From Dehalococcoidia bacterium (GTDB lineage: Bacteria > Chloroflexota > Dehalococcoidia > Lucifugimonadales > JAAXIE01), in contig OZ240229.1 of NCBI GenBank assembly GCA_965197805.1, positions 1,638,502-1,702,501 of the forward strand: DNA of 64,000 nucleotides, read 5' to 3'. This document shows positions 3,174 to 61,865 of the stretch, in pieces. Under the pieces are notes generated by a model that was given only the letters and a program-made list of their open reading frames with translations, was not told the DNA's origin and did no database searches. Each line of letters opens with the position of its first letter. Position 1 is the first letter of the stretch. A program made the translations under genes and the position numbers.

Positions 3174-3182
3174 GTCTGCTCC

Positions 3183-3686: not shown

Positions 3687-3903
3687 TCTGTGCTATCCCG
3701 CCAAGGGCGGAAATGCCCGGCGCGAGCGGCGCAGCGACGGCGTGGGCCGTCGTTCCGTCCTCCGCCTCAGCTGCATGGACCGGTCTGTCGAGCGCCATGT
3801 GAATGCCTCCCTCGCACAGGCGGGATGAGCGGAGCCTACGACCTCTTCCGCTGTCCGCAGGTGGAGTTGCAGCCTGTGATTCCGCTTACCCTTGTCACTC
3901 TTC

Positions 3904-4064
3904 TTACGCACATTCCCATGAAAACGGTAGCGGCTCTTCAAGGCTTTGGTAAGTGCCTAATCACACTTCTTGGCGAGGTAATCTGGACGGCATTTTGTTA
4001 GCTTTTAGAGAGTGTGTTTCTGCAACTTTTCGCTCTTGCCGACACAAACGAAAGTGGCTAGATT
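3904..4064. repeat. left copy of a ~160-bp imperfect inverted repeat flanking the two-component operon
   Basis: It shares the blocks GGTAAGTGCC.AATCACACTTCTTGG, CGGCATTTTGTT, AGTGTTTCTGCAACT and CACAAACGAAAGTGGCTAGATT with the reverse complement of 6126-6272. Confidence 0.7.
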
Positions 4065-4123
4065 GGTAGTCATAACCACACCGCCGTGGCACTCCATGTT
4101 TTCACACGCATACAGGAGAGGAG

Positions 4124-5395: not shown

Positions 5396-5396
5396 G

Positions 5397-6463: not shown

Positions 6464-8335
6464 ATGAGGTCCGACACTCCCACTCTGCGCCTAACCGGCA
6501 TTCTGCTTGGGATATTGCTCGTCGTCGCCGCCATAACCTCCTGCACCGACAGCACCGAGCCCACAGTGGAGGTTACCACAGTGGAGGTTACGCGTAGGCA
6601 GACTCCGGCCCCCGAGGCCGCTCTGACGGCTGCAACAGTTCTCCATGTCCCCTGGACGAGGTTGGAGTTCCGGGTTGTGCCTCGCGGTGTTCACCGAATC
6701 GAATTCGAAATGAACACGGAGGAGACTCTGGAGTATCACTACAGTCTTTGCTGTGGCCTTAGTGGCGGCGGTGACGGTCCTATAGGGGCTATGACCGATC
6801 TTGTGCAGAGCTTTACTGGTTCTCTGGACATTAGGCTGGCAATCACCGGCCCGTCAGGGGATGTGTTGTGGTCGGCAAGGACTGCCTCATACAATAACTC
6901 GACCACGGCCAGGCCTCCAGGTATCTACACTCTGGTGTTCGACAATAGCTACTCTCAATCCAAGGACAAGTCGATTAGCCTGGACTATAGGGTACTCCCC
7001 AAGGGAGTAAAGTGGGCTACCCCGCTTGCACCAACACCGGAGGCGACCCAGTGGCCTCTGCATTTTGCGGTTCGTTGGATTGAAGACCCGGCGGTGATCC
7101 AGGCGCTGGTGGACGCCGGGGCCGACGTCGATGCGAAGAACGACCATGGCGATACGCCTTTACATCTTGCGGCTAGTGGGAATGAGAACCTGGCGGTGAT
7201 CCGGGCGCTGGTGGACGCCGGGGCCGACGTCGATGCGAAGGACGCCGATGGCGACACGTCTCTGCATCTAGTGGTTGGATACAAGGCGAACCCGGCGGTG
7301 ATTCAGGCGCTGATGGACGCCGGGGCCGACGTCAATGTGAAGAACGCCGATGGTGACACTCCTCTGCATCTTGCGGTACGTTGGATTGAAGACCCGGCGG
7401 TGATCCAGGCGCTGATGGACGCCGGGGCCGACGTCGATGCGAAGGACGCCGATGGTGACACTCCTCTGCATCTTGCGGTTCCTTGGATTGAAGACCCAGC
7501 GGTGATCCAGGCGCTGGTGGACGCCGGGGCCGACGTCGATGTGAAGAACGACGATGGCGACACGTCTCTGCATCTAGTGGTTGGATACAAGGCGAACCCG
7601 GCGGTGATCCAGGCGCTGATGGACGCCGGGGCCGACGTCGATGTGAAGAACGACGATGGCGACACGTCTCTGCATCTAGTGGTTGGATACAAGGCGAACC
7701 CGGCGGTGATCCAGGCGCTGATGGACGCCGGGGCCGACGTCAATGTGAAGAACGCCGATGGTGACACTCCTCTGCATCTTGCGTCTCTTTTGAATGAAAA
7801 CCTGGCGGTAATCCAGGCGCTGATGGACGCCGGGGCCGATGTCGATGCGAAGAACGCCGATGGCGACACTCCTCTGCATCTTGCGTCTCTTTTGAATGAA
7901 AACCTGGCGGTGATCCAGGCGCTGATGGACGCCGGGGCCGAGGTCCATGCGAAGGACAACGGTGGCAGCACGCCGCTGCATCGTGCGGCTTTCGGGAATG
8001 AAAACCCGGCGGTGATCCAGGCGCTGGTGGACGCCGGGGCCGATGTCCATGCGAAGAGGGTCACTGGCCTCACGCCGCTGCATCGTGCGGCTGGTTGGAA
8101 CAATAACCCGGCGGTGATCCAGGCGCTGGTGGACGCCGGGGCCGACGTCGATGCGAGGGACAACCATGGCAGCACGCCGCTGCATCGTGCGGCTTATTGG
8201 AATGAGAACCCGGCGGTGATCCAGGCGCTGGTGGACGCCGGGGCCGACGTCGATGCGAGGGACAACGACGGGGACACGCCTTTGGATATAGCGGAGTCCA
8301 GAAGGAACACTGCCGCCATCAAGGTGCTTCAATAG
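6464..8335 (+). CDS. ankyrin-repeat lipoprotein (~13 repeats)
   Basis: The lipobox is VVAAITSC. A ~190-aa N-terminal domain is followed by repeats of consensus DGDTPLHLAxxxNxNPAVIQALxDAGADVxAKN. I counted 13 (T/S)(P/S)L(H/D) cores. Confidence 0.9.
   Translation: MRSDTPTLRLTGILLGILLVVAAITSCTDSTEPTVEVTTVEVTRRQTPAPEAALTAATVLHVPWTRLEFRVVPRGVHRIEFEMNTEETLEYHYSLCCGLSGGGDGPIGAMTDLVQSFTGSLDIRLAITGPSGDVLWSARTASYNNSTTARPPGIYTLVFDNSYSQSKDKSISLDYRVLPKGVKWATPLAPTPEATQWPLHFAVRWIEDPAVIQALVDAGADVDAKNDHGDTPLHLAASGNENLAVIRALVDAGADVDAKDADGDTSLHLVVGYKANPAVIQALMDAGADVNVKNADGDTPLHLAVRWIEDPAVIQALMDAGADVDAKDADGDTPLHLAVPWIEDPAVIQALVDAGADVDVKNDDGDTSLHLVVGYKANPAVIQALMDAGADVDVKNDDGDTSLHLVVGYKANPAVIQALMDAGADVNVKNADGDTPLHLASLLNENLAVIQALMDAGADVDAKNADGDTPLHLASLLNENLAVIQALMDAGAEVHAKDNGGSTPLHRAAFGNENPAVIQALVDAGADVHAKRVTGLTPLHRAAGWNNNPAVIQALVDAGADVDARDNHGSTPLHRAAYWNENPAVIQALVDAGADVDARDNDGDTPLDIAESRRNTAAIKVLQ
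7040..8290 (+). repeat. tandem 102-bp (34-codon) coding repeat array inside the ankyrin gene
   Basis: The landmark GCGGTGATCCAGGCGCTG recurs at 7091, 7193, 7295 and onward with a 102-nt period. Units 7538-7639 and 7640-7741 are identical at every base. Confidence 0.9.
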
Positions 8336-8815
8336 GCGATCGGTAACGCCGCACTGAGCGCGGGATTTCGGTTAAACCCAGGCGGCCAATGTCCCATCAG
8401 GGGTTCACCATGCGGATGCGCAATCGCGATGGGGCAGGGGTGATGAGAACGCTCTGAGCAAGGTTCGGTTTGGCCTGCATTGCGTTCCCGAGCGACCGAA
8501 GGGAGAGAGAACTGCCGCGCAGACCTGACTGATGCCCAAGATAGCACGGCAAGGCAGGAGGTTCCCTTGATCGTAGCAGGGCCTCCCGTTTAGTCGGCGG
8601 GCTTGTATTGAGTTCCAGTCAACAAGGGCGGTCCACGGCCCTATTACACTTCCAGCCGGAACCGCAATCCGAAAGTTCTTGATTTTATCAAGTCTGGTGG
8701 AGGAGTTGAAACTAGCGGCAGCAACGCTAGGAGAGCCGACCCGAGGGTCCGTCTTCCGCCCCATTGGGACGCACGGGGTTGCCAATCTGACTAGCAACCG
8801 GCAGGGGTGGGAGGT

Positions 8816-9850
8816 CTAGTTCGCGGCGGCGGGCGGCGTGGCCAGATGTTGCCGGACGCAATCTACAAGACGCCGCGCTTGGCCTTTGACGCCAGCTTTG
8901 TTCTCGTGGTCGAAGTAGAAACTGTAGGGTTCGATTGTACTGCCTTCGAACTTGACGCCGGAGGAGATCATCCCATCGTTGTATCCAACGTCATCGATGC
9001 GGTCGTAGGGCAGTTCTATCTCCCTGGAACCACCCCGCAACAGGAGGACACGGCGGTCTGTAGCGACTGCGATACCCTCGTGCCCTGTCCTGTTCCTCCC
9101 AGGGCCACCCATCGGGTCGAATCGGAAATCGTTGGGCAAGCCCCAGCGGCCTCCCAGCCAGTACTCAATGTTCTCGTCCTCACCAAGGATCTCGTGGAGC
9201 TTCTTGCGTTCACCTTCGTACTTCTTGAGATTGGCGCCCGAGACATTGGTAAGAAGGCGGCTAAGAAGTCCGGGATTCATCCGGCCGGCCATTGCGGAAC
9301 GGTCCTGCCACTGGGCGTCAATGCGTTCAGTTTTGCTCATTCCGAAACCTTGACCGCCCGATGAGGGAGCGACAGTTGAGCGAGGCGCGGTCTGGAGCTG
9401 CTGCACCAGTTGGGCGAAGCGGTGGCCCGCTTCGCCGTGGATATCCCGGATTTGGAAAGGGTCGTCCTGCCCCTCCCCCATCCAGGCCCAATTATGGATA
9501 CCGTTGCCAGCCACGGTCACTACTCCGACTGCGTGTTCCACTGCCGTGATGCTGGGCAATGGCATCTGAGTCACAAGTTTGTTGAGACCCTTGTGGGCGA
9601 CGAAGTGGACGCTGAGGTCGGTGACGATGGCGGCGCCCTTGAGCCTTTGCTGCCGGCTTATAAGTCCGGCGCCCTCGGCGAATGCCGACTCGGGGCCCCA
9701 AGTACAGCCCACCAGCCCCATGATGTTTTCATCTTGGTCCAGGAAGTCATAAATCAGCTTGCGCTCGCGGTCGTGATTTTCCTGACCCCATGAGAAAGCC
9801 TGCTGTACCCACTGGGCATCAACGCGGTCGCGCAGTTCTTTCGTCGCCAT
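8816..9850 (-). CDS. protein with two tandem bacterial PH-like (YokE-type) domains
   Basis: There is an internal duplication: DRVDAQWVQQ...LIYDFLDQDENIMGLVGCTWG versus ERIDAQWQDR...LHEILGEDENIEYWLGGRWG. Each copy is followed by a beta-rich segment (IAVATDRRVLLL...). The family assignment is from memory. Confidence 0.6.
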   Translation of the reverse strand: MATKELRDRVDAQWVQQAFSWGQENHDRERKLIYDFLDQDENIMGLVGCTWGPESAFAEGAGLISRQQRLKGAAIVTDLSVHFVAHKGLNKLVTQMPLPSITAVEHAVGVVTVAGNGIHNWAWMGEGQDDPFQIRDIHGEAGHRFAQLVQQLQTAPRSTVAPSSGGQGFGMSKTERIDAQWQDRSAMAGRMNPGLLSRLLTNVSGANLKKYEGERKKLHEILGEDENIEYWLGGRWGLPNDFRFDPMGGPGRNRTGHEGIAVATDRRVLLLRGGSREIELPYDRIDDVGYNDGMISSGVKFEGSTIEPYSFYFDHENKAGVKGQARRLVDCVRQHLATPPAAAN

Positions 9851-10070
9851 GGTTTAACCTCCTTGCTGGTTGCTCCGCTTAAACTACTTGTTGCTGAAGT
9901 TCACCCAGCGCGGCTCCTTTCGCCGCCTTGCCTCCATCTAAGAAAATTCCATCTCGCAAGCCCTATAAGGACCAGCGCGACCGGGTCATACAAGGGAGGC
10001 CAGCGCCGCAACGGATGCCCCCGCCCGCCTACACGGTCAATTATTACGCCGTTTACAGGCATTTTCACGA

Positions 10071-10358
10071 CTATTCTTCGCAGGGAAGGTTGTCTGTTCC
10101 CACAAGAACTCTACTGCCGATACCCCACCCTTCGGGCAGGCACCCACTTAGTTGGTTATTGCTAAAATAGATGTCTATGGGATTCAGTATAACCTCGGGG
10201 GGTATCCGCCCGGTCAGTTGGTTGCTACTCAAATGCAGCTCTGTCAGGTTGGAGAGATTGCCCAACTCCGGCGGTATCTCCCCGCTCAGCTGGTTGTTAC
10301 TGAGGTCCTCCGCCTCCGCAGGCGGCCAACAGCAGCATGAACACCAGGACACACATAA
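10071..10358 (-). pseudogene. LRR lipoprotein, frameshifted after the signal peptide
   Basis: The LRR body ([33 protein letters not shown]) starts in one frame. A lipoprotein signal, [19 protein letters not shown]-stop, reads from 10358 in a different frame. Confidence 0.6.
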
Positions 10359-10456
10359 GTGGGATGGCGTATCTGGGCAAGCATGAGTTCACAACTAACC
10401 TCCTTTGACAAGACAACCGCGTGTCGCTTCAAGCGAATCTCTATTGGTCTGTGGCA

Positions 10457-12223
10457 TCAGTGTCTGTCTTTGGCGTCGTCCGAGCTGCGGGTGGCAGCCT
10501 GGGCCTTGTGGACCTCCGCCACCATTCTTTCCGCCGACGCCCATTCTGCGCTGTGGCCGAAGTACACCGTCTCCCTTTCGCCGTCCACCGACGCCGCCGC
10601 ACAGTTCATACTCTGTGTTCGAGCGCTCTTGCCCTCCAACCACTGCCCCACAAGGAATGTCAGGAACCCTATCCCGATAACCGCGCCGTGGATAGCCCAC
10701 TCCATCGCCGAATTAGGCTCGAAGGGGCGGCAGGTTCCTATCCAACCCCTACCTCCTTCACATTCCTCCGTTACGACTCCAAACCAATACAGGACATGAA
10801 ACAGTAGCCGCCACAGCAAGTAAACGGAGGCGACACCTACCATCAGCCCCCCGCCAACCAACATGATCAAAATACCGGGCCCTTTCAGGAACCAGTTTGA
10901 CCCTCCCGTTTTGACTGGCTGCCGGTCCACCTGAACCGACGAAATCGCGCGGAGGTCAATGGTTCTGCCGGGGAGGACCAGGTTTCGCTGCGAAAGCAGG
11001 ACCTCTCCATCTTGATAGAGCGTCCGCTCCGGTTCGGGAGCATCCGCCCGGCTCGCGACTTGCCGAGTTTCGCCAGCAGTTTCTCGGTTCGCCGTCCCTT
11101 GAGCCTGCTCAGTGTAAACCGTCCGCTCTTGGAATCGTTCCGGCTCTGCCCTGTCGCGTCGCGCAGCAGCCGCTTCCGCCCCGTCTTCGGACCGTCCGGC
11201 CAAGCCCCACTCCGGTGCGGACATGAAGCCGTGATAGGCCACATTCAGGTCGAGGGCTCGCAGGGAGGCTGCCTCACCGGAGGCGAACCATGGTGGAGCG
11301 GGGACCGAAGCGTCCAGCCAGGGCTGAGCCACATCCAAAGCGACGGCATAGGCCAACATGGAATCGGGTTCGCCCCGTCCAACCGCCGGGTCAGGTCCGG
11401 CCAGAGATTCTTTCAAACCATGTAACTGGCTTATCTCATATACCCCCGCTTCCGTTGGCGCCAGCATACCCGTGTGCATCGGCGTCGCAATCATCCAATA
11501 TATGCAGCCGACGACCGCGCCGACGAGGGAGTTCGCCCACCATTGGGGCAGCCATAGAGCCAGCCAAAGCCCGCTGCCAACGCCCATCAAGGCCCCGGCC
11601 AATGTCGCCAGTCCTAATCCATCCGCGAAACGCTCCCGCCTTACCCGTATCGGGTTGTCATGGAAGAGGCCTCTGCCCTGCAGGTACTCCCCCAACTGGT
11701 CGCCGATGGCATCCTTGTGCTCCCCTATCCCGTCACGCAGTGCTTGAACCGTTGCGGGGCGCGATGGCAAGCTGTCGCATATCAACTGTTCCCACTCAAA
11801 CTGCATGGGGCCCTGCTGCGACAGCCAGTAGAGGAAGCCGCTCCTCGTTCCGACGCACTGGAATTGCAACGTGCCACGCTGGCACATCTCGGTTATTGCG
11901 GCCAGCAGAGTTCGATCGCTGACCTCCCGGTCTTCCAGCACCGATACCGCTGCCGCGGGCAGCCCAGTGCGCTGCCGGGTTCCCAACTCCAATGGGTCCC
12001 GATGCTTGGTCGCGTGCCTGGGCCGGTAACTCAGCCAAAGCCCCAGCACGAGCAGCAGCGCAACGCCGACGCCAATCGTGCGGAAACCCCACACCATGAG
12101 CTGCTTCCAATCCATATCCCGGTAATCGGGGAAGCCACTCTGGGCGATGGCTCCACCAGGGTCCAGCGCCAACAACAGCCCAATGGCAGCAAGGGCCGCC
12201 AGCGTTGCCAGAATACTCACCAT
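10457..12223 (-). CDS. multi-pass membrane protein, DUF2207-like
   Basis: 588 aa with an N-terminal signal or TM segment, a central block of TM helices (GLATLAGALMGVGSGLWLALWLPQWW...) and C-terminal TM helices. The layout and the LTxxEAGxL-like segment resemble DUF2207. The family call is tentative. Confidence 0.55.
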   Translation of the reverse strand: MVSILATLAALAAIGLLLALDPGGAIAQSGFPDYRDMDWKQLMVWGFRTIGVGVALLLVLGLWLSYRPRHATKHRDPLELGTRQRTGLPAAAVSVLEDREVSDRTLLAAITEMCQRGTLQFQCVGTRSGFLYWLSQQGPMQFEWEQLICDSLPSRPATVQALRDGIGEHKDAIGDQLGEYLQGRGLFHDNPIRVRRERFADGLGLATLAGALMGVGSGLWLALWLPQWWANSLVGAVVGCIYWMIATPMHTGMLAPTEAGVYEISQLHGLKESLAGPDPAVGRGEPDSMLAYAVALDVAQPWLDASVPAPPWFASGEAASLRALDLNVAYHGFMSAPEWGLAGRSEDGAEAAAARRDRAEPERFQERTVYTEQAQGTANRETAGETRQVASRADAPEPERTLYQDGEVLLSQRNLVLPGRTIDLRAISSVQVDRQPVKTGGSNWFLKGPGILIMLVGGGLMVGVASVYLLWRLLFHVLYWFGVVTEECEGGRGWIGTCRPFEPNSAMEWAIHGAVIGIGFLTFLVGQWLEGKSARTQSMNCAAASVDGERETVYFGHSAEWASAERMVAEVHKAQAATRSSDDAKDRH

Positions 12224-13683: not shown

Positions 13684-14550
13684 TCAGCAGAAGGGCAGGC
13701 CGCCAAGGTTAGAGAGGTCAAAAAACAACAAGTCGTCTTCCAAGCTGCTTGGCACGCACCCGCTCAACTTGTTGTTGCGGAGGTCCAGCGATACCAGGTT
13801 GGAGAGGCTGCCCAATTCCGGGGGTATCTCCCCGCTCAAGGCGTTGTTGTAGAGCATCAGAAATTGCAGGTTGGAGAGGCTGCCCAGCTCCGCCGGTATC
13901 TCCCCGCTCAAGTGGTTCAGGCCGAGGTCCAGCCTTGTGAGGTTGGAGAGGCTGCCCAACTCCGGCGGTATCTCCCCGCTCAACTCGTTGTTTTCGAGCT
14001 CCAGCCTTGTGAGGTTGGAGAGGCTGCCCAATTCCGGGGGTATCTCCCCGCTCAAGTCGTTTTCGTAGAGGGCCAGCGACTCCAGGTTGGCGAGGCTGCC
14101 CAGCTCCGCCGGTATCTCCCCGCTCAAGTCGTTGAATCTGAGGTCCAGCGCTGTAACCCGCCCGTCGTCGTCAGTGGTGACGCCCTCCCATTCGCCGAGG
14201 GGAGCGTCGCTCAGCCAGTTGTCGCTGTTCTCCCAGTTCTCACCGTCCGTTGCGTTGTAGAGGGCAACCAGGGCTTCCCGATCCGTTTCGGCGGAGCCGG
14301 AGGCCGCGGGCGGCGCTGTCGTAGCCGTAGGTCCAAGCGCAACGGCGGCAGTGGGCGCGGCCTCTGACCCCGGCGTGGAAGGCGTCCGTGCGGGGGAGGC
14401 CGGCGTCTCCGTTGGCGTGGACGCGGTACGGTCGGGGCCTGTCACGCCGGACGGCTCATCGGAGCCGCAGGCCGCGAGCGCCACCGTAAGGGCCAGCGCA
14501 AGGACAACGCTCAACAGGGTTATGTATCTTGTCGTGCGTGTACGGGTCAT
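13684..14550 (-). CDS. LRR lipoprotein (plant-type LRR consensus)
   Basis: The lipobox is LTVALAACG, followed by a P/T/A-rich linker. At least six repeats read LxxLxLxxNxLSGEIPxELGSLSNL. The ATG at 14550 is preceded by GGGAGGGAAAGGAA. The ORF-track start at 14598 is less likely. Confidence 0.85.
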   Translation of the reverse strand: MTRTRTTRYITLLSVVLALALTVALAACGSDEPSGVTGPDRTASTPTETPASPARTPSTPGSEAAPTAAVALGPTATTAPPAASGSAETDREALVALYNATDGENWENSDNWLSDAPLGEWEGVTTDDDGRVTALDLRFNDLSGEIPAELGSLANLESLALYENDLSGEIPPELGSLSNLTRLELENNELSGEIPPELGSLSNLTRLDLGLNHLSGEIPAELGSLSNLQFLMLYNNALSGEIPPELGSLSNLVSLDLRNNKLSGCVPSSLEDDLLFFDLSNLGGLPFC

Positions 14551-19981: not shown

Positions 19982-21683
19982 CCCCGATCCACCGAAGAGA
20001 TGAGTGTGGGGGCGTAATGAAGGGGTAAGAAAGCGCTCCCTGCTTGGGGGATAATGGTTTCAGGAAGACGAAACCGACCCCAAACCGGGAGCACCCAATT
20101 GATGCTACCACCTGAGCGCCCCGACCGCATCCAAATCGCCTTTGATGATCACCGCCTGGTGGCCAATGCCGGGCTGCTCTTGCCGGTCACCCTGGCCCAG
20201 CGCCTGGGTCTGTCCCAGCTGGTTGACCGCCACGTTGACCTGGGCGATGCTCCTGGACGAGCCAACGCTGGCGACAAGATGCTGACCCTGGTAGCGTCGG
20301 CGCTGGCTGGGGGCGACTGCATCGACGACGCCGACGTGTTGCGCACCGGCGGGACCGCTCGTGCCATCGGCTGCGTGGTCAAGGCGCCGTCCACTCTGGG
20401 CACCTTCCTGCGCAGTTTCCGATGGGGTCACGTGCGCCAGATGGACCGGGTGAGTCGGGAGCTGCTGGCTCGGGCCTGGGCCGCCGGTGGGGGACCCGGC
20501 GACGGTCCGTTGACCATCGATCTGGACTCCACTATCTGCGAGACCTACGGGTTGGCCAAGGAAGGGGCACGGCGCCACAACTACACCGGCCAACGGGGCT
20601 ATCACCCGCTCCTCGCCATCGCAGCCGGCACCGGGGACGTGCTGATGGCCCGGCTCAGGGAGGGCCGGGCCAACACGGCCAGGGGCTCGGCCCACTTCCT
20701 GCGGGAAACGGTGGGGCGGGTGCGCCACGCCGGAGCCACCGGACCACTCACCGTGCGGGCCGACAGCGGCTTTTACACCCATGGCATCGTCGCCGTCTGT
20801 CGCAAGACGAAGGTCCGCTTCTCCATCACTGTCCGCCAGCACGCCCGACTGCGTAATCTCATCGAGGCCATACCAGAGGAAGAGTGGACGCCCATCCCCT
20901 ACTGGATGGAGGGCGCCGCCGACGTGGCCGAGACTGACTACACACCATTTGGCAGTGAGCCCGACGCCGTGCCGGTACGTCTCATCGTCCGCCGGGTGAA
21001 GCCCACGCCCGGTTCCCAACTGGCGCTCTTCGCCAACTATAGCTATCACGCTTTCATCACCGACCGGGAGGGCGACACCCTGGATCTCGAGGCCGACCAT
21101 CGCCGCCACGCCGAGATCGAGAACGCCATCCGCGACCTGAAGTACGGCGTGGGGCTCAACCACCTGCCATCGGGACGCTTTCCCGCCAACGCCGCCTGGC
21201 TGGCCGTCCAGGTCATGGCCCACAATCTGGCCCGCTGGACAACGCGCATCGGTCTGGGCGAGCCGGCGGCAACCACCAAGACCCTTAGGCGGCGCTTCTT
21301 CGCCCTGGCCGGACGGCTCACTCACTCCGCCCGTCGCCTCACCTTGCATCTTCCTCAGAGCTGGCCCTGGGGAAACCAATTCGGCAGAGCCCTGGCAAGA
21401 CTGCGCGCCCTACCGCTCCCTGCCTGACGGCGTCCGACCCATCCGCCGCACTACCCAACCGCCTGGCGGGCTTGCGCCACGCCGGTCCCTGAGTGTCTCC
21501 TGCTTCCAGCTGGCTGCCGGTCTCGCCCGCCACCAGCGGCTGCGGGCCGTCAGAAATCACATTTGCGCGGCTGTCGCACCCCACACCGTCCAAATCTGCC
21601 GGAATCAAAACCCGCCAGTCTCATTCCCGCACCTCTCACCCCTGGCCTGACCGGCACGGCCCAAACCCTCGGTGGATTCGGGG
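19982..21683 (+). mobile_element. complete IS1380-family insertion sequence (1702 bp)
   Basis: Terminal inverted repeats are CCCCGATCCACCGAAG (19982-19997) and the reverse complement of CCTCGGTGGATTCGGGG (21667-21683). A 4-bp direct duplication TAAG flanks the element at 19978-19981 and 21684-21687. Confidence 0.85.
20054..21427 (+). CDS. IS1380-family DDE transposase
   Basis: 457 aa and full length, with TIDLDSTICETYG, YHPLLA and the C-terminal HRRHAEIENAIRDLKYGVGLNHLPSGRF motif. The start may instead be the ATG at 20102. Confidence 0.9.
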   Translation: MVSGRRNRPQTGSTQLMLPPERPDRIQIAFDDHRLVANAGLLLPVTLAQRLGLSQLVDRHVDLGDAPGRANAGDKMLTLVASALAGGDCIDDADVLRTGGTARAIGCVVKAPSTLGTFLRSFRWGHVRQMDRVSRELLARAWAAGGGPGDGPLTIDLDSTICETYGLAKEGARRHNYTGQRGYHPLLAIAAGTGDVLMARLREGRANTARGSAHFLRETVGRVRHAGATGPLTVRADSGFYTHGIVAVCRKTKVRFSITVRQHARLRNLIEAIPEEEWTPIPYWMEGAADVAETDYTPFGSEPDAVPVRLIVRRVKPTPGSQLALFANYSYHAFITDREGDTLDLEADHRRHAEIENAIRDLKYGVGLNHLPSGRFPANAAWLAVQVMAHNLARWTTRIGLGEPAATTKTLRRRFFALAGRLTHSARRLTLHLPQSWPWGNQFGRALARLRALPLPA

Positions 21684-27025: not shown

Positions 27026-27115
27026 CGGTTCCCTCGCGTGGGCGGGGATAGACCGCAGGCACCGTCACGCCGCGGTCCATGGTCTCCGGTTCCCCAGCGT
27101 GGGCGGGGATAGGCC
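27026..27115 (+). CRISPR. orphan type I-E-like CRISPR remnant: two 29-nt repeats and one 32-nt spacer
   Basis: The repeats are CGGTTCCCTCGCGTGGGCGGGGATAGACC (27026-27054) and CGGTTCCCCAGCGTGGGCGGGGATAGGCC (27087-27115), 26 of 29 identical. Both resemble the GTTCCCCGCG...GCGGGGATAAACC repeat class, and the 29/32 spacing is canonical. Degenerate repeat-like sequence lies at 26967-26995 and ~27148-27178. No cas genes are in the window. Confidence 0.55.
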
Positions 27116-27706
27116 GTCGACTCATACATGTTCGCGTACCAGCCAAGGGGTTGCGCAACCATTCAGGCTGGGTGTAGATCGGTACCGGAGGTCGCGGGAG
27201 AGTGCCTTCATGCATTGCCCCGAAGGGAACTGCATGGAAGTCTCTCCCAGGCTTCTTCATCCGGTCCGCTGCATAAAAGGACCCACGAGGGCAGGGCGAC
27301 TTTGAAATCTGGCAACGACGAGAATAACCGCATGGCACAGATGGAAGACGGCCGTCAACTAGGACAGGGCAGTGGTCGGGCAGCAGGTCGGCGAGTGCAC
27401 AATTGAGGAATTGAGCGCTGAGCTTGGGCGAATAGAGCCTCCGGCGTTTCCGACGGTCGAGCGGTCCCCGTGGACGGTGTGCTGGATTTGCATCACCAAG
27501 ACTGGCAAGCGGGCGGCTCGCCACGCCGCACGGTAGTCATCCATAGAGAGTTCTATCGAAACCTCTACCCTAGCCCTGGACACCCTTGTTGTGTATGAGC
27601 AAGAGCGCGAAGATACCGAAACCCAACAGCAACAGGCGTCAGTTCAAATGTCATCCCCTCACAAATAATTATCGGGTTAGGGGAGGCAGAAAACCATCGC
27701 TCTAGG

Positions 27707-34196: not shown

Positions 34197-36048
34197 CTAG
34201 TCATCAGGGTAGCCCAAGTTGTGCCTTCCTCTTTGTGACCTCCATAGAACTTGGCCAGCCTGAGGTGCTTCTCGCTCATCGACCGAAACCGGGAGCCGAT
34301 CCAGGGAGCTCGAAGATTCCTGTATCGCTGGGCAACTTCTCCTGGTGTGAGGGTTGGATCGATCTCCATCGTGATGCGACTCGATATAGGCTGGTTCAAC
34401 ACCATACGAATCCCACCCCGCGAACTGTTCAGACTTTCCGGAGGAGCGCAACCGGCGCTCAACGCCTTCCAGCACCAATCGCAGCCTGCCCCTTGTCAGC
34501 AGGCGGTACAGCGGAGATGACCCAAGGGCATCGGCCACAGCTTCGTCGACGGGCCATTCTCTGGCGTATGCAGTCTGCTCCTTCAGGAATCCGGCGGTAA
34601 CCGCGTCGGCCTTGTCCAGTCCACTCTCACGCAGGCGGCTGGCCAACTCCAAGACTAGCCTGTTGTAGTCCTTCGTGGTCTGACGGCATATCATTCTACG
34701 GACCAGGAAACTCTCCAAGGCACTGAAGGCCCTGATGCGCGTTCCTTCCTCAGCCGACAGGAGCAGTAGAAGTACGGGGGTAATCACGCCGGCCTGCATG
34801 ACTTGCACGTGATAGTAGAACGACTTCTCACCAGGGCTGCGGCCCCTGGTCGACTCGAAATTACGGTAGTTCACTAGGTCTTGTTTGAGCCCCGTCATCA
34901 CCGCGTGGATCTCTTGGCCATCAACATAGCTGCGAAACACGTCAAATACCCTTGACGGTGAAACTTCCGAACCCGTGCCCATCGCCAGCCAGTAGTTGAG
35001 GAGCATGTCTAGGCGCGGCCTGTACAGGCGGCCTTGTCTGACCTCCAATCTCCACCACCCATCGTCCAGGTTCCCCCAGATGTCACCCTGCCGGTCTCGC
35101 TCCTGAGAGAGGACAAAGTTCTTGATGAGGTCAGACTGTTCAAGCGGAGTGCCACGGGCATTTAGCGTCTCGAATATGAGGTTCGGATCGTCCTTAGGGC
35201 TGAGGTCAATCACTACCATCTGGAGCATCGACGTTGCCGCAGCCTCAAGCGCATCGATTTTGGGCTCTATTGGCCCTGCTGCGTCTTGAAGCCATTTGCG
35301 GACTTGCAGTTGGAAGAACTCGTGGGCTTGGACAATCAGCGACCCCTCGAAGTCGTTTACGGCGAGTCCATTGTCCATGGCGTGCCTGAACGCTTCCCTG
35401 TCGCCCCTGGTGGGCCACAGCTTGAATATGTGAAGCCTGTCGTCCCCTATGAGTTCTTCGTCGTTGGTAACAAGCTTGGCCAGACGCCTTGCGACTCTCT
35501 TGAGGTATGGTTGGTCTGACTCCTCGCAAATCTGTTGAATAGCGTCCAGAAGAAGTTGGAGGGTCGTCACCCTCTGTTGGCCGTCAATCACCTCACGCTG
35601 ATCGATGTCTTTTGCAGCCGTGGGGACCTGCTTGAGAACGACGGCGCCTAGGAAGTGTGGACTTGTCTTCTGCTCTGCTTCGACTCCGTCGTTACCTGAG
35701 CGCTCTAGCAGGCTGCGGAAAAACTTTTTCGCCCACCAGCAAACGGAATATCTATGACGATAAGGTAGTATAAATCGTCAAAACTGCTGTGATACGTTAA
35801 AATAATTACAGGCTATTGATGAATTGCGTCGTGCTAGATTATGCCTCTCCCGTCACATCGAGTTGCGACACCCATTTTCCGCAGCCTGCTAGTTCTTCAA
35901 GATAGTTTTCGGCCACGTTGCGGACATCTTCCCAGAGCGGTTCCCATTGGTTGTCCTGGGACCAAACGTAGGGACGCTGAAAGGGCGGGATAGTGTATCG
36001 GACCTCTTTCTGGAAGAGGTCTTTAGGAGTGAGAATGTCCGTGTGCAC
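34197..36048 (-). pseudogene. DUF262-family (GmrSD-like) gene, split by a MITE and lacking the C-terminal DUF1524/HNH part
   Basis: The N-terminal piece reads IPPFQRPYVWSQDNQWEPLWEDV (36048-35892). The body reads HFLGAVVLKQVP...VIDGQQRVTTLQLLL (35707 downward). No H-x-x-P or HNH-type nuclease motif follows RLRLVLEGVERRL; unrelated sequence follows instead. Confidence 0.75.
35708..35889. mobile_element. 182-bp MITE with 15-bp perfect terminal inverted repeats and TA target duplication
   Basis: The TIRs are GCAGGCTGCGGAAAA (35708-35722) and its exact reverse complement (35875-35889). TA lies at 35706-35707 and 35890-35891, and the interior is AT-rich. Removing the element plus one TA restores ...AENYLEELERSGNDGVEAEQKTSPHFLGAVVL in frame. 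Confidence 0.7.
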
Positions 36049-36102: not shown

Positions 36103-36438
36103 CTATTCATTCACCAGGACGTCAATCGTGGTGCCGAGCGCACTGGCGATGCGGGCCAAGGCCGAGGTCGATCCCGGTTTTCGCCCACGCTCAATCTCCG
36201 AGAGGTACCCCACGGCTATACCTGTTTTCTCGGAAAGTTCCCTCAAGGTGATGCCTAAGTGGTTCCGAAACGCCAAGATGGGACCCTTCCCACGCATAAT
36301 GTCGAGGGCGACCTTATGGGGAACACGCACGCCGTCGTCCGCTTCCTGGGCGGCTAGCATGTCCTCAAGTTGGCTGTTGCGCTCAATGAGAGCCTCGTAC
36401 TCCTTCCGGGTCATGGTGATGGTCTCTTCGCTAGTCAT
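36103..36438 (-). CDS. XRE-family HTH antitoxin (HigA-like)
   Basis: LGITLRELSEKTGIAVGYLSEIERGRKPGS is a Cro/C1 HTH. The gene lies downstream of, and overlaps by 8 nt, a RelE/ParE toxin gene. Confidence 0.85.
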   Translation of the reverse strand: MTSEETITMTRKEYEALIERNSQLEDMLAAQEADDGVRVPHKVALDIMRGKGPILAFRNHLGITLRELSEKTGIAVGYLSEIERGRKPGSTSALARIASALGTTIDVLVNE

Positions 36439-36688
36439 AGGCCTCCCTCCTGTGTCGGACTCTTAGCACTATCAAGGTAGACGGCTCGCCGTGTTGAGTG
36501 GTGAAGATTACGCGGTGGTGACCGACCCTCAACCGCCTGTAGTCACTGCCGGTCAGCGAGGTGACCTGCCTAGCAAGCGAAGCGGGGTTCTCGGCATACT
36601 GCTCAATCTTAGTGATGATCCGCTCTCTGTCCCGTACGGTGAGGCGGCGCATGTCCCTGATCGCCCGTGTGCCCCATTCGATTTGCAT
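36431..36688 (-). CDS. RelE/ParE-family toxin
   Basis: From the ATG at 36688 it reads MQIEWGTRAIRDMRRL...YRRLRVGHHRVIFTTQHGEPSTLIVLRVRHRREAY. Confidence 0.85.
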   Translation of the reverse strand: MQIEWGTRAIRDMRRLTVRDRERIITKIEQYAENPASLARQVTSLTGSDYRRLRVGHHRVIFTTQHGEPSTLIVLRVRHRREAYD

Positions 36689-37689
36689 TCCCTCATGCAT
36701 ACCCTCTATTTTCTCCATCGGAGAACAGGCCGTCAAGGGTCCACACGGGAGTGCCGACTACAAGGCGTGGCCAATCGCGAAGACGCAGACAGGCTCCAAA
36801 ACATCGGAATTTGCGCCAAACCGGTCCCAGCGGTCCCGTCTAATCCGCCGTCCCCATGGAGCCCCCTAGGCACGGACGCACATGCCCCCTCACAGGGGCA
36901 AGAGATCCGTCGTAGCGTTGGCGGTGTTCTACCCGCATACAGGAGAATGAGCGGGGCGGCAAATTGCGGTAGGGAGATTCCGTAGCCGGAATTGAGGTGA
37001 ACGGGGCTGCCTGCCACATCGGAGCAAGCGATCCGATTCCGTAGCTCCTTCCACCCCTAGCAAGACAGTCTCAGCTACGAGAGTGGATAAAACACCGGGC
37101 CGGGGAGTCGAGAGATACCGGACAGCCTCAGCTACGGAAGTGGACAGGATGCCGGCCGGGTCTGCGGAGGTGATGAGAGCCGGAGCTGAAGCCGCCACGC
37201 CGGTTCCTGTGAGCCGCTCAGTCTGTGTCCCCGCCCTCCGCAGTCGGCTCCGGCGTAGCCCTTGGAACGGAACGCCTGACACCGCAGCTGAACGCGGACT
37301 ATCATTCGAGCAAAGGAGACACAGCCCACGCCAGATCGTCTCGTGCCGCTCCGCGGAGAAGGACGGCGAGGCCCGCGCCGCCGTGGCCCGGCGATTGGTC
37401 GATGGTCTCCGCGCCAACTCGTTCACCTCTCTGCGGTTTGCCGCGACTCATCGGATCACAGCTCGAAAGTGCAATCGGTTTTCGGACGTTTTTCGCAGTG
37501 CCTGGGATGTACAGAGATTTGGGACTGCAAGAAAATGCAATCTGGGTCGAAGAAGAGGGCTGTGTAGATACGGCCCCTACAGGAAAGTAGGAGGGCGGGG
37601 CAACGAGTTTTCTTGACGCTCGGTGTCAGCCGATTGCACTTTATTGTATTGTAGTCTATTGCAGCTTTGAGGGTCAGGCGGGGGTGGTC

Positions 37690-41753: not shown

Positions 41754-41860
41754 AATTAGAACTGTCCTACCTAAAAATGTTCTAAAAACCGTCTATCGAA
41801 TTATAATGCCGCACGCGTGATGTACTCTTTCATTGTTTCACCCCCAATTTTCAAACTCAT
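41754..41860. repeat. left copy of a ~110-130-bp inverted repeat (45-bp perfect core at 41777-41821)
   Basis: The core ATGTTCTAAAAACCGTCTATCGAATTATAATGCCGCACGCGTGAT is the exact reverse complement of 44868-44912. It contains TATAAT (41802-41807) and is followed by a short ORF start (V)MYSFIVSPPIFKL. Confidence 0.85.
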
Positions 41861-42687: not shown

Positions 42688-43700
<1,013 letters not shown>

Positions 43701-44488: not shown

Positions 44489-44872
44489 CTACTTCGAGAT
44501 CGCGGCCAACAAGGGCCGATTATTGCTCAGAGCCAGCATCACCATGTTTCGAAGGTTGCCGAGTTCCGGCAAATGTCCGTCTCGGGCCACCGGCGGAATA
44601 TGACACCTAGTCTCATATAGGCTCGCTGACGTACTGGATGCGACGGCGGGCAGCAGGCTCTTCCCGTTGAACGCGCCCCATAGCTGGCCAAGGACGTTGA
44701 CTGGCAGGACATAGGTGCAGTCGGCCTCCGACACCATCAGTCGAAGGGCCACCGAGCCGGACCTCCATACGATTGATACCGTCGCCTGGTTGGTGGGTAG
44801 TGTATTGGCCTTTCCTCCATGGATTTTCGAGAGCCCGAAAATTGGGGGATATACATACAAAGAGTATATCAC
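44489..44872 (-). CDS. mosaic hypothetical ORF driven by the right repeat copy
   Basis: The GTG start lies inside the repeat (MIYSLYVYPPIFGL). The middle contains CTYVLPVNVLGQLW, which recurs as CPYVLPINAFGQLW near 50290. The tail is LRR-like (LPELGNLRNMVMLALSNN). Confidence 0.35.
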   Translation of the reverse strand: MIYSLYVYPPIFGLSKIHGGKANTLPTNQATVSIVWRSGSVALRLMVSEADCTYVLPVNVLGQLWGAFNGKSLLPAVASSTSASLYETRCHIPPVARDGHLPELGNLRNMVMLALSNNRPLLAAISK

Positions 44873-44946
44873 GCGTGCGGCATTATAATTCGATAGACGG
44901 TTTTTAGAACATAGTTAGATGTGGACCGTTCTAATTGGGATTCTTC
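44815..44946. repeat. right copy (inverted) of the 41754-41860 repeat
   Basis: 44868-44912 is the exact reverse complement of 41777-41821. The flanks are similar with scattered mismatches (AATTAGAAC outer end, CCCCCAATTTTC inner part). Confidence 0.85.
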
Positions 44947-47455: not shown

Positions 47456-47880
47456 GTGTGGGCCGCGTAACGCGGCATAGGATTCCCGGCTCAGTCGGGG
47501 GAGACCCGGAGGGAATCTCTGGCCAACCGACCCACCTCAAAGCGAAAGCCTAGGGGGAAGTAGCAAGTCGGTAAAGCGGCTACAGCCTGAAAGCGTTGTT
47601 GGGCTGGTTCCGCAAGGCCCGCGCGATACGGTGAAAGCTTGATTGCCTGAACCCCAGTCCCCAGTCGGTGTTCACTTCACCCGCCGGTAGAACACTTGCA
47701 ACCCGGCGCCGCCCATTGCCTTGGTCGGTCCTCGTGACCGAGGCACCTTCGATGAGCGGACGATGGCCGATGTGGTCATTCAAGGGACGAACGGGGCACC
47801 TACAGTCGCGCTCGATACGTCCTATGTTGATGACAACGGGGATAAGGTTCGTCTGGATGCACTCTAGTTACCGCGGTATT
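47456..47880 (+). mobile_element. group II intron, 5-prime (domain I-like) fragment, no reverse transcriptase ORF
   Basis: It starts GTGTG immediately after ...GAGGTGCATTA. It is dense in GNRA-capped hairpins (GCGTAACGC, AGCGAAAGC, CCTGAAAGCG, CCGCAAGG, GGTGAAAGC). A CCAACCGA...AAAGCGAAAGC stretch resembles bacterial group II domain I. I found no domain V or VI. Confidence 0.5.
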
Positions 47881-47891
47881 GCCCCACGGCT

Positions 47892-48137: not shown

Positions 48138-48377
48138 GGCAGTACTCCGCTGGTTGCTATACGTGGAAACTAGCAGAGCCCCAACCCCAAGTCAAAGAGA
48201 ACGCGGGATGGCCTACGGGGGGAGACCCCTATGGTCAGAGGATGGTCCTTGGGTACCCGCTCCTCCAGATTCACGTAGGCCAACATCACTTCCTGTTCCT
48301 CATGCCTGCCGCGCATCCTGCACCTCCGCTGCGTCTCCCTGGCATCCTAACTAACAAAACTCTTTTTCCGCACCCTG

Positions 48378-48653
48378 TTAGTGCGAATAATACGTGTCAG
48401 CCTCGCATATCTCCGAGAGTTTCCGAGGCGAAACTCTGCCTTCGAATACTATTTCACCAGTTTGGATGTCGTATATTTTCAATGATGCGTCGTTCTCTAT
48501 GGCGTCAGTATAGGCTTCAGGATCATCTTCGGGCTCAGTGGTCACAGCATAACCAGAAACCGCATTGGTTTCTGAATTCACCCAAAATACGAGTCTCGTA
48601 ATTTGCCTCCAAAGCTCGGTGGAGTAGGTTTTGACAGTGCCTGCGCAGTGCAA
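48378..48653 (-). CDS. hypothetical small protein
   Basis: 91-aa ORF in a comparatively AT-rich stretch. I recognise no family. Confidence 0.35.
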   Translation of the reverse strand: MHCAGTVKTYSTELWRQITRLVFWVNSETNAVSGYAVTTEPEDDPEAYTDAIENDASLKIYDIQTGEIVFEGRVSPRKLSEICEADTYYSH

Positions 48654-50987: not shown

Positions 50988-52070
50988 TCATCGCTTCTTG
51001 GCGGGGTTCCCGTCTTTGGCTCCCCACCCTCGGGACCGTCCCGCATTGGGGTATATCCGACTCGACCAGTTGTCGCCATTGAAGCTATGCCGAAAGCGCC
51101 TAGGCGCTTGCATTCGGATGCGGTCCAGGGGAGAGAAGTCCTGGTTCACCTGAGAGGCCATCCGGTCGGCGATATGAACATATTTCTGGACCATGTCCAG
51201 GGTGGTGTGTCCGAGGTTCTGCTGCAACATGAAGACGTTGCCGCCGTTCAGGAGGAAACGGGTGGCGTAGGTGTGGCGCATCAGATGCGGGTGTAGTCTC
51301 GGGACCTTGGCGGCTTTGGAGACCCTCTGGGTTAGGGACCTGAGGGCAAGGGGCGACAGGCAATGACCGTCTATGGATAGGAAGAAGGTGTCGGCTACCT
51401 GTCCCTCGTTTTCGAATCGGTAGCGGGTAGCATAGTTGGTGAGAGCCCTCTGGCAGTTGGTGCCAAAGGCGACTACCCGCTCCTTGTCTCCCTTCCCTAG
51501 GGCCTTTATGTACCTCGCGTCCAGATGGACGTCAGCGTACTTCAGGGTGACGACCTCGGTGAGTCTCAGCCCGGTATCCAACATCAGGGAATATATGGCC
51601 GTGTTCCTTGCCCCCAGGACAGTGTCGACGTTCATGGTGGCGAATATCCGCTCAATCTCCTCGTCGGTCAGTATCTCTACCTCCTTTTGCCTCACCTTGG
51701 GCACCTTGAGGTTCTGCAACCTGTGGCACTCGGTGAAGCCCTGGCGATACATCCAGTTGAAGAAAGCCCGCAGAGCCCTGACCCGGTTGTTGAGGGTGTA
51801 GCTTGAAGTCTGCCCCCGCCAGCCCTTCCTCTCCTGGAGGTAGAGGATGAAGCTCCTGACCTCGTCCTCGCCCAAGTCGTCCACCTGCGTGGACATCCCC
51901 TCCCCTCTCAACCATCCTAGGAACAGGTCGAGGGCTTCGTTGTACCACTGCACGGTTCTGGGCGACTTGCCGTCGGACCTGTTGTGGACCTCGAAACGCT
52001 CCACCAGTTTGTCGAGTTCCAGATTTCCCGCGACCACCTTGCGGCTTGCCCTCTTCTTCATAGCAGCCAT
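50988..52070 (-). CDS. tyrosine recombinase / phage-type integrase
   Basis: The SAM-like N-domain reads TVQWYNEALDLFLGW. The catalytic region reads LDTGLRLTEV...LGKGDKERVV...HLMRHTYATRFL...LQQNLGHTTLDMVQKYVH, giving the R...H-x-x-R...Y pattern. The ATG is at 52070. Confidence 0.9.
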   Translation of the reverse strand: MAAMKKRASRKVVAGNLELDKLVERFEVHNRSDGKSPRTVQWYNEALDLFLGWLRGEGMSTQVDDLGEDEVRSFILYLQERKGWRGQTSSYTLNNRVRALRAFFNWMYRQGFTECHRLQNLKVPKVRQKEVEILTDEEIERIFATMNVDTVLGARNTAIYSLMLDTGLRLTEVVTLKYADVHLDARYIKALGKGDKERVVAFGTNCQRALTNYATRYRFENEGQVADTFFLSIDGHCLSPLALRSLTQRVSKAAKVPRLHPHLMRHTYATRFLLNGGNVFMLQQNLGHTTLDMVQKYVHIADRMASQVNQDFSPLDRIRMQAPRRFRHSFNGDNWSSRIYPNAGRSRGWGAKDGNPAKKR

Positions 52071-52228
52071 GTTACTCACTTGCCCCACTTTCGAGAATTG
52101 TCTGTCGGGCAAGCAGGAGGAGGGGCCGTGCACGACTCACCAGAAGAGGTAGGCAGCGAGTCGGATTGCCTCTTGAGTGAGGCGACCCTTTTCCTTAGGA
52201 AAGGAGTGAACCGAAGCTAGTTCGTAGC

Positions 52229-60231: not shown

Positions 60232-61563
60232 TCAAAACCCCTGATTCCGTCCGAGTTTATTAGCAGCCGGTAGGTGTTTATTAGCAGCCTGCCCGTCCAC
60301 GCTAAAAACTGGACTCACGCCCAACTCGTACGCGGACTGGATCAAGACGCAGATATTATGACACAGGAACTTCAACATAGCCTCGTTGACCTGAGCAGCA
60401 GGGACCTTAGAGCTCACTGCTTGCCCGAACTTGGTCTTAACCATGTGGAAGACGGTTTCGACGTTCGACCGCTTATGATAGTGGGCCAAGAACTCCTCCC
60501 GGTGCAGGTTGTAGAAGTGGTAGGCACGCTCCCACAGGGCATCGCGCTTGTGGTGGGTTATGGCCTTGGAGTTGGATTTGAAGGGGATGAAAGCGGTTCC
60601 GCCCACTGCCGCAACTGCTCGCAGGTTGCCCTTACTGAGATAGGCTTTGTCCGCAGAGACTTCACGGACATTGAAGTTCTGGGCCGTGGTCTCTACGAAG
60701 GGAGCGAAGAACGGAGAGTCGGCGGAGTCTGTCTCAGTGGCAACCGCGGTGGTGATGATGTTAGTGGTCACTCCACAGATTGCGTGGGCCTTCACCCATT
60801 GGGCCTCCCGGATGACCTTGTTCCATTTGTTGTCGAACCACCTGTGGTAGACCGACGTGGCAAACCCAGTGGAGTCGATGGCGAAGTCGCTCTCGACCGA
60901 GGCCAAGGGCAGTGCGCTCCGCTCAATCAGTTCCTTCAGCACCGGGGTCAGGGCCGGGTCTTCCATGCATTTCCAGATGCTTCCCGTGGAGGGAGCCTTG
61001 TCGAGCAAGCCGGAGGCCTCGGCGTTTCTCACGTCGGTCATGGCCCTGCGGGCGGGCATACGGTTGTAGACCTTGAGGGCAGAGGCGAACACCATATCGG
61101 ACAGCGGCAGTCGTGGGCGCCCGGTGGCCTTGGCTGGTGGCTGGGGGATCGTGTCGCAGAGTTCCCGGAGCAGCGTGAGGAAATGTTCCTGCTCATGCTC
61201 TTGGGCTGCGTTGTAGTTTGCCCAGTCCTGCCGATAGGTGGTAACGCGGGCTGTACGGGTCTCCACTGTAGTCCCGTCGGGTCTCTCCTCGCGCTGGATG
61301 ATGAGCTCCACGGCGTAGACATGTTTACAGGGTTGCTGCCGTCGCTCGAAGTCCGGGCAGGTGCAGAAAGGTGTGTCATCGGTATTGACGACATACGAGC
61401 CGTTGCCGGACTGGGAGGGGACCTTGTAGCCGAGCCGATTCTTCTCGATGCGGATCATGGCTGCGATGGCCATGCCCCTGAGTTGACGGCCGGCATCGCC
61501 GTCGTCAGGGTCACTGGGTCCAAGGGCGGTTACGGCGTTGAGGTCGAAGTGGAGTTGACTCAC
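60232..61563 (-). CDS. DDE transposase with an N-terminal SWIM zinc finger
   Basis: The SWIM finger is CTCPDFERRQQPCKHVYAV. The DDE candidates are AIDSTGF, SADKAYLS and HKRSNVETVFHMVK. A GTG start at 61563 has GGGAG upstream. I could not define clear terminal repeats. Confidence 0.8.
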   Translation of the reverse strand: MSQLHFDLNAVTALGPSDPDDGDAGRQLRGMAIAAMIRIEKNRLGYKVPSQSGNGSYVVNTDDTPFCTCPDFERRQQPCKHVYAVELIIQREERPDGTTVETRTARVTTYRQDWANYNAAQEHEQEHFLTLLRELCDTIPQPPAKATGRPRLPLSDMVFASALKVYNRMPARRAMTDVRNAEASGLLDKAPSTGSIWKCMEDPALTPVLKELIERSALPLASVESDFAIDSTGFATSVYHRWFDNKWNKVIREAQWVKAHAICGVTTNIITTAVATETDSADSPFFAPFVETTAQNFNVREVSADKAYLSKGNLRAVAAVGGTAFIPFKSNSKAITHHKRDALWERAYHFYNLHREEFLAHYHKRSNVETVFHMVKTKFGQAVSSKVPAAQVNEAMLKFLCHNICVLIQSAYELGVSPVFSVDGQAANKHLPAANKLGRNQGF

Positions 61564-61676
61564 TATCTGCACTCCCGGATAATATGTTACTATACGGGAA
61601 GTATAAGTGTAGCAGGATGGTAAGTCAATACATAGCGGGGTATACTTTGCGGGAAGTTGTACCTGCGGAGACAGCA

Positions 61677-61865
61677 ATGGCGGAAGCACTGCAACAACCC
61701 GGAGAGTTCCAAACGACAGCCTACAGATGTCGATGTGGGCACGAGTGGTTGCCCAAGAGCCTCAAGGGAGACCGTCCGAAGGTGTGCCCCAAGTGCAAGT
61801 CTCCCTACTGGGACCGACCGCGCAAGTTGGCAAGGAAGGCGATAGATGGTGCCTTGACATGTTAG
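61677..61865 (+). CDS. 62-aa zinc-ribbon protein
   Basis: ATG at 61677 follows GGAG. The Cys pairs are CRCGHEW...CPKCKSPYW. Confidence 0.5.
   Translation: MAEALQQPGEFQTTAYRCRCGHEWLPKSLKGDRPKVCPKCKSPYWDRPRKLARKAIDGALTC

Follow-up and report, generated by a model that had tools for sequence, protein, structure and literature searches.

The question raised by the locus considered here is what separates the two pieces of a restriction gene on a 64,000-nucleotide stretch of a Dehalococcoidia bacterium genome (contig OZ240229.1, positions 1,638,502 to 1,702,501, hereafter the window), which family of transposases could have put it there and what became of the gene. The gene is of the GmrSD type, that is a type IV, modification-dependent restriction gene, and the intervening segment is short, non-coding and bounded by perfect inverted repeats. 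The answer that we regard as highly probable is that this segment is a miniature inverted-repeat transposable element (MITE) of the IS5 family, ISAzs10-like group, which would have been mobilised in trans, inserted at a CTAG within the restriction gene with duplication of these 4 bp, and inactivated the gene.

In a first-pass annotation, made from the letters of the window, the segment was described as an AT-rich MITE of 182 bp with perfect 15-bp terminal inverted repeats (TIRs) and a duplicated TA, and the sequence is as described there: GCAGGCTGCGGAAAA occupies 35708-35722 and is mirrored by an exact reverse complement at 35875-35889, TA lies outside each of them, and the GC content is 45% within the segment and ~56% in its flanks. 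In a repeat search the perfect inverted repeat comes out longer, at 18 nt with 100% complementarity (35705-35722 and 35875-35892; CTAGCAGGCTGCGGAAAA), the additional length being due to the flanking CTAG, which is itself palindromic. From the window copy alone a duplication of TA with 15-bp TIRs is indistinguishable from a duplication of CTAG with 14-bp TIRs, an ambiguity that the first-pass annotation had passed over; the perfect inverted repeat stands, and the dimensions have to be redrawn on the evidence of the flanks of other copies. As delimited here the MITE is a non-coding body of 180 bp (35709-35888, no strand assigned) bounded by perfect 14-bp TIRs, CAGGCTGCGGAAAA, at 35709-35722 and 35875-35888, with a left copy of the CTAG target-site duplication at 35705-35708 and a right copy at 35889-35892 (neither with a strand), the 4-bp size of both being taken from the other copies and from the wider family of elements with this TIR.

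These ends form the sole perfect inverted repeat in the 64-kb window that is at least 14 nt long and has 50-400 bp between its arms, and no such repeat arose in 30 first-order Markov random sequences. Stops occur throughout all six reading frames of the MITE, leaving it no coding capacity, and as single-stranded DNA it is predicted to fold into a long hairpin, 3.6 standard deviations better than shuffles. A promoter scan of the MITE gave one weak promoter-like match that was not above shuffles, a terminator scan found none, and in Rfam the window had no match at the gathering score and the MITE region none at E <= 1. No further copy of the MITE is present elsewhere in the 64 kb, where the only near-match to the TIR belongs to the relic of an insertion sequence (IS) at 48364-48377, described below.

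The interrupted gene is encoded on the minus strand. Its 5' piece (35839-36048, minus strand) comprises 52 native codons (36048-35893), followed by Leu53 and another 16 residues encoded by the element, before a stop that lies within the MITE; the product of 69 aa begins MHTDIL, its native part ends NYLEE and its element-encoded tail is LAGCGKWVSQLDVTGEA, hence it is indeed the element, after 17 element-encoded residues, that gives the upstream piece its premature stop. The central part of the gene, with the remainder of the DUF262/GmrSD_N domain and the linker, lies at 34425-35708 (minus strand), and its DNA is 94% identical to that of an intact ortholog on locus L003. Removal of 184 bp (35708-35891) restores one continuous frame, ...NYLEELERSGNDG...HFLGAVVL...DGQQR, in agreement with the earlier proposal that excision of the segment and one TA would fuse the two pieces, and the restored protein matches GmrSD_N/DUF262 (PF03235) at E = 9.6e-36 over residues 9-251. 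A second lesion had gone unremarked: homology to L003 ends at 34425, the final ~363 bp (~120 codons, corresponding to GmrSD_C/DUF1524) are missing from the window gene, and the whole 64 kb contains no match to the C-terminal His-Me nuclease domain DUF1524/GmrSD_C (PF07510). The two GmrSD pieces are a single pseudogene, and the window copy of it is doubly damaged. Directly upstream of the restriction gene there is an HTH/XRE antitoxin-like gene (36103-36438, minus strand) and a gene for a ParE-family toxin (36431-36736, minus strand); the same two genes are likewise called in two further strains, L130 and L131, which are discussed below.

The uninterrupted state of the gene is abundant among relatives. 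A protein search returned thousands of relatives, and the best 120, which were examined, are 585-609 aa long (mostly 600), carry both GmrSD_N and GmrSD_C and reach 95% identity. The junction is read straight through with the same spacing in 117 of these 120 best orthologs, the alignment across the proposed junction for which the first-pass annotation had called, and the predicted junction 13-mer NYLEELERSGNDG is present exactly in 16 of them. One ortholog (P0001) matches the PADLOC model mREase_IV, a type IV methyl-directed restriction enzyme, over its full length (E = 5e-61). At the level of DNA, the two window flanks join in the orthologous loci L001-L003 (85-94% identical to the window), with alignments that overlap by 2 bp, which is a precise empty site. 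L003 is from the closest genome in which the gene is intact, and the neighbourhood there (2539-5709 and 8004-10463) looks like a defence island: on one side of the GmrSD gene is an Eco57I-like type IIG methylase/restriction gene, and on the other are two IS630 (DDE_3) copies, followed by a second GmrSD_C fragment.

Further copies of the MITE, which the first-pass annotation had proposed to look for, were found by a protein-led search, in which concatenated peptides from the open stretches of the MITE were used as a query against a collection of 5.8 billion proteins. Five proteins carry MITE-encoded peptides as C-terminal tails or N-terminal heads, and each of their contigs (L132-L136, related metagenome contigs from ENA samples ERZ25067264 and ERZ25072076) contains one full copy of 179-180 bp, 95.6-98.9% identical to the window copy and in an unrelated gene context. 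The flanks are CTAG/CTAG in L132, TTAA/TTAA in L133, CTAA/CTAA in L136, TTAG/TTAA in L134 and TTAA/CTAA in L135. With five further copies at unrelated loci, each with its own flanks, the window element is a genuine multicopy MITE; small size without coding capacity, TIRs, a target duplication with an empty site, and multiple copies at unrelated sites are all present, and its original identification as a MITE is borne out. The exact subterminal 22-mers of the MITE had no match in viral contigs for either end, and the left one had none in the JGI metagenomes, where only the left end was scanned; this left 22-mer differs by one base in most of the sister copies. The copy in L135 (4886-5064) lies within an IS1182-like transposase gene (DUF772 and DDE_Tnp_1_6) and in L136 (within 4663-5070) a spacing of 16 bp separates the copy from part of an ISAzs10-like IS, both being cases of mobile elements nested in other mobile elements.

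Whether 2 or 4 bp were duplicated can be read from the wider family of elements with the same end. A scan with TARCAGGCTGCGGAAAAW of viral contigs and of 185,579 species-representative genomes gave at least 120 genome loci, and many short elements, 100-400 bp in length, proved to carry this end. Among the matches listed, ~27 loci are from metagenome-assembled genomes (MAGs) of Nitrospira/Nitrospirota, ~45 from Acidobacteriota and ~17 from Alphaproteobacteria, the remainder being from Deltaproteobacteria, Chloroflexota, Bdellovibrionota, Planctomycetota and others. For the 63 paired elements among these matches the 4 bp that adjoin the 14-bp TIR on its outer side were compared, and they are identical on the two sides in 38 elements (CTAG in 20, TTAA in six, TTAG/TTAG in six, CTAA/CTAA in five and TGAA/TGAA in one). 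The 63 elements include 11 non-palindromic YTAR direct repeats, plus the one TGAA/TGAA, and not one flank pair of the inverted type (such as CTAA/TTAG); across the same elements the left flank correlates with the right, both at position 1 (Fisher p = 3e-8) and at position 4 (p = 5e-6). Because the flanks form correlated direct repeats both across the TIR family and within the subfamily of the MITE itself (CTAG, TTAA, CTAA), the duplication is one of 4 bp (YTAR, here CTAG) and not of the 2-bp TA. Duplication of 4 bp at 5'-YTAR-3' is the known target behaviour of IS5 (PMC5009759, PMC10359306).

It was on the TA that the first-pass annotation had rested its attribution of the element to Tc1/mariner-IS630-type transposition, with 15-bp TIRs (GCAGGCTGCGGAAAA), a 2-bp duplication and an IS630-like autonomous partner predicted to exist elsewhere in the genome. 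The single window copy fits TA/TA with 15-bp TIRs equally well, and IS630 (DDE_3) genes do occur just downstream of the L003 ortholog; however, the copies with CTAA/CTAA and TTAA/TTAA make the supposed outermost base of the TIR variable, and unpaired in the case of CTAA, and the flanks family-wide are 4-bp direct repeats. Furthermore, all full-length elements with the same TIR among the matches listed encode IS5-family and not DDE_3 transposases, the IS630 copies beside the L003 ortholog have no matching TIR within 3 mismatches, and no IS630-like (DDE_3) coding sequence is present in the 64-kb window. The IS630 model is already largely refuted and can be given very little probability, and with it go both the reading of TA as a hallmark and the predicted partner.

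The evidence for an IS5-family partner comes from longer elements that have the same ends. In five loci (L124, L122, L052, L112 and L059) two copies of the same TIR, 1304-1326 bp apart and flanked by duplications of CTAG or TTAA, have a single gene of 362-372 aa between them, and transposase genes are also present in the TIR loci L110, L120, L041, L128 and L067. The transposases of L124 and L122, the two that were scanned, score 276-282 bits on the NCBIfam model NF033581, 'IS5 family transposase' (cut-off 140), and contain the domains PF05598 (DUF772) and PF01609 (DDE_Tnp_1); the ~10 full-length elements with matching TIRs among the matches listed are all of the 360-aa NF033581 type. Of the named elements ISAzs10 from Azospirillum sp. 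B510 is the nearest, with a transposase 61% identical; its curated copy on NC_013860 measures 1307 bp, ends in the TIRs CAGGCCGCGGAAAAAGG and CAGGACGCGGAAAAAGG and is flanked by a duplicated TTAG. A literature search found no published occurrence of the TIR string or of the name ISAzs10. The MITE resembles ISAzs10 and the NF033581-type IS5 elements in its near-identical TIRs and its 4-bp YTAR duplication, yet ISAzs10 encodes its own DDE transposase of ~360 aa, whereas the 180-bp, non-coding MITE has only the TIR in common with it. Identity of the TIR together with the YTAR duplication indicates that the MITE is derived from the IS5 family, ISAzs10-like group. Very often in the ISAzs10-like clade a separate small open reading frame (ORF) is called for the C-terminal ~93 aa of the transposase, and the 120 best matches (P0126-P0245) are all of 75-142 aa; widespread decay, descent from a shared defective ancestor and recoding could each account for such a split.

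A different but related transposase family could also be proposed as the agent of mobilisation, for example one that is IS1182-like, which has the DUF772 N-terminal domain in common with the partner transposases and may use similar ends. These transposases score ~200-210 bits on the IS1182 model, which is under its cut-off of 270, one copy of the MITE is found inside an IS1182-like gene (L135), and no intact ISAzs10-like copy has been seen in the host lineage. The L135 copy, however, is inserted into the IS1182-like gene and does not bound it, the ends of that element have no TIR match within the locus, and the uniformity of the ~10 full-length same-TIR elements, all of the 360-aa NF033581 type among the matches listed, also speaks for the ISAzs10-like group; mobilisation by such a family is therefore improbable, if a little less so than by IS630.

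The ISAzs10-like partner family is present in the host lineage. In the window itself there is a left-end relic of an ISAzs10-like IS5-family element, 145 bp in length (48237-48381, minus strand), 12.5 kb from the MITE, with a TIR, CAGGGTGCGGAAAA, at 48364-48377 that has one mismatch to that of the MITE, and a CTAA flank at 48378-48381. The relic corresponds, at 89.7% identity, to the initial 145 bp of an ISAzs10-like IS of 1320 bp in L138, and in a tblastn search with the L124 transposase it was matched at E = 5e-6 over the first ~38 codons, the match extending to 48182. The L138 element (3131-4450) is full length with CTAG/CTAG flanks and a transposase with two frameshifts; L137 has a near-full-length copy with a fragmented reading frame on a contig of 2x coverage, and the locus adjoining L131 in one of the sister strains (L139 4979-5456) has a 478-bp right-end relic only.

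The sister strains also give the insertion a relative age. The identical truncated product of 69 aa is encoded on L130 (a 1.87 Mb contig) and on L131 (an 849 kb contig), which come from different samples; both contigs align with the window at ~98.8% identity for more than 10 kb, with differences that are mostly substitutions, and in each of them the same MITE sits at the identical position and differs by one substitution. The window, L130 and L131 therefore represent three sister strains that inherited a single insertion. All three also lack the 3' end of the gene, with breakpoints that differ: homology to L003 ends at L003 6484 in L130 (L130 10668), at 7289 in L131 (L131 11473-11479) and at 7440 in the window (34425). 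In L131 what remains of the gene reads in frame into a helicase-like ORF (DEGHH motif), and in L130 it is followed by ~8 kb of unrelated genes. Since the insertion is common to the three strains and the 3' breakpoints are strain-specific, the MITE insertion preceded the 3' losses, and the most economical reading is that the MITE inserted first and that deletions or replacements then occurred independently in an already dead gene.

With these data it can also be asked whether the segment is transposable at all, or is instead a chance or structural palindrome, an artefact of assembly, or a self-splicing insertion that leaves the gene functional. The long hairpin fold would suit such a view, as would the nature of the assemblies, which are low-coverage long-read contigs (5-12x). 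Yet the same insertion is found in three independently assembled strains from different samples, the five further copies have 4-bp duplications of their own, the orthologs have a precise empty site, no Rfam match was obtained and stops interrupt all frames. The multicopy and duplication evidence has already refuted this view, which we hold to be the least credible of those considered.

The IS5-family reading can then be set out as a sequence of events. An ISAzs10-like transposase, supplied in trans, would have bound both ends of the MITE and cut a YTAR target, the CTAG from codons Leu53-Glu54, with a stagger of 4 bp, and gap repair would have left CTAG duplicated on either side. The insertion splits the GmrSD-type gene after codon 53, with a stop supplied by the MITE 16 codons later, and so would have inactivated a type IV, modification-dependent restriction gene. 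It is old enough to have been inherited by three sister strains, and afterwards the dead gene lost its 3' nuclease domain through strain-specific deletions or replacements. Both the mobilisation in trans by an ISAzs10-like transposase and the loss of restriction function are predictions from sequence, and are probable rather than observed.

Four observations weigh against this account. The first is that beyond the TIR of ~14-17 bp the similarity between the MITE and the ends of ISAzs10-like IS elements is no better than that of shuffles; because of this, assignment of the partner rests on the TIR and the duplication. The same comparison led us to reject the MITE as a simple internal-deletion derivative of an ISAzs10-like IS. 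The second is that no intact autonomous copy was present among the host-lineage contigs examined, only relics and frameshifted or fragmented copies. Thirdly, flanks differ by one base at two of the six sites of the subfamily (L134 and L135). Finally, the nearest empty sites (L001-L003) read GAACTGGAGCGC, with CTGG in place of CTAG; because the Leu codon there is CTG, the pre-insertion CTAG is itself inferred. The lineage of the window would have carried the synonymous CTA, creating CTAG before the insertion, and its empty site, with a single CTAG, would read GAACTAGAGCGC.

Comparison with known systems helps to place the element. Bacterial MITEs derived from IS630 include Correia/NEMIS of Neisseria and RUP of Streptococcus pneumoniae, which duplicate only TA and have IS630-family ends. 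The window element is like these in its small size, TIRs, potential to form a hairpin, TA-containing site and disruption or fusion of genes, but it duplicates 4 bp (YTAR) and its ends are of the IS5 family. The Tourist/PIF-Harbinger MITEs are eukaryotic, belong to a superfamily related to IS5 and have a 3-bp TWA duplication; the likeness here is in being non-autonomous and defined mainly by TIRs in common with those of an IS5-related transposase, with TA-centred duplications and many subfamilies with unrelated cores. Escherichia coli IS5, the archetype of the family, has a 16-bp inverted repeat, GGAAGGTGCGAATAAG, that is like the TIR of the MITE at ~10 of 16 positions. It has the 4-bp duplication at YTAR in common with the MITE (PMC5009759, PMC10359306); it differs in being autonomous, in belonging to a host of a different phylum and in its divergent TIR. 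IS elements in cas genes are an example of the inactivation of defence genes by IS insertion (PMC10359306), and here too a defence gene, that of a type IV restriction enzyme, appears to have been knocked out, the agent being a MITE rather than a full IS.

Within the wider TIR family the interior of the MITE has no counterpart, as no homology beyond ~18-22 bp of the end was found in comparison with the at least 120 TIR-bearing GTDB loci. Nor does the window have any DNA in common with the named GTDB loci. In loci from Nitrospira/Nitrospirota MAGs (L013, L035, L038, L075, L083, L093, L113 and others) the elements of ~200 bp with the same outer TIR are composite, with interiors unrelated to the MITE: a CAGGCTGCGGAAAAACT end with ~60 bp is linked to another short element, whose own limits are CAGGATGCTCAAAAAGG... 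and ...GGACTTTTTCAGCATCCTG. This structure suggests nested or chimeric MITEs, and a literature search found no published description of Nitrospira MITEs of this kind.

The window as a whole is a gene-poor region rich in mobile elements. Mobile-element genes include those for a PF13701 (DDE_Tnp_1_4) transposase (20054-21427), an IS21-type IstB helper (42756-43553), a tyrosine integrase (50988-52133) and a transposase with DDE_Tnp_1 and SWIM domains (60232-61689). An 82-nt inverted repeat, 89% complementary, at 41771-41852 and 44837-44918 encloses ~3 kb and possibly represents the ends of another element; both arms are matched at 86-88% in L130 and L131. Two 30-nt direct repeats with a spacing of 61 nt at 27026-27116 (CGGTTCCC.CGCGTGGGCGGGGATAG.CCG) look like a two-repeat remnant of a type I-E-style array of clustered regularly interspaced short palindromic repeats (CRISPR), and the area is flanked by a diverged pair of 61-nt repeats at 26789 and 28161. 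Long in-frame tandem repeats are present at 6954-8375 (102-nt period, ~12 copies, inside ORF 6464-8335) and at 13744-14155 (72-nt period, ~5 copies), the latter with a related copy at 10194. The candidate 5' end of a group II intron at 47470-47890 found no support.

A broader joint reading, which is speculative and taken as a whole unlikely, would see in the 14-bp end CAGGCTGCGGAAAA an 'address label' that crosses phyla, with dozens of MITE subfamilies of unrelated cores in Nitrospirota, Acidobacteriota, Alpha- and Deltaproteobacteria, Chloroflexota and Bdellovibrionota being served by one clade of ISAzs10-like transposases; at this locus the MITE would be the founding lesion of the type IV restriction gene, the loss of which may have been selected, for instance by admitting modified foreign DNA, or may have been reversible by precise excision until the later deletions occurred. 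The event itself is of an ordinary kind and leaves the current understanding of transposition unchanged. Its main value is one of correct annotation, in that the element belongs under the IS5 family (YTAR, 4 bp) and not under IS630/mariner, with the caution that a palindromic duplication such as CTAG can pass for a duplication of TA if a single copy is examined. In addition it documents a widespread group of TIR-defined MITEs in uncultured bacteria of soil and water, and provides an example from nature of the loss of a defence gene to a MITE.

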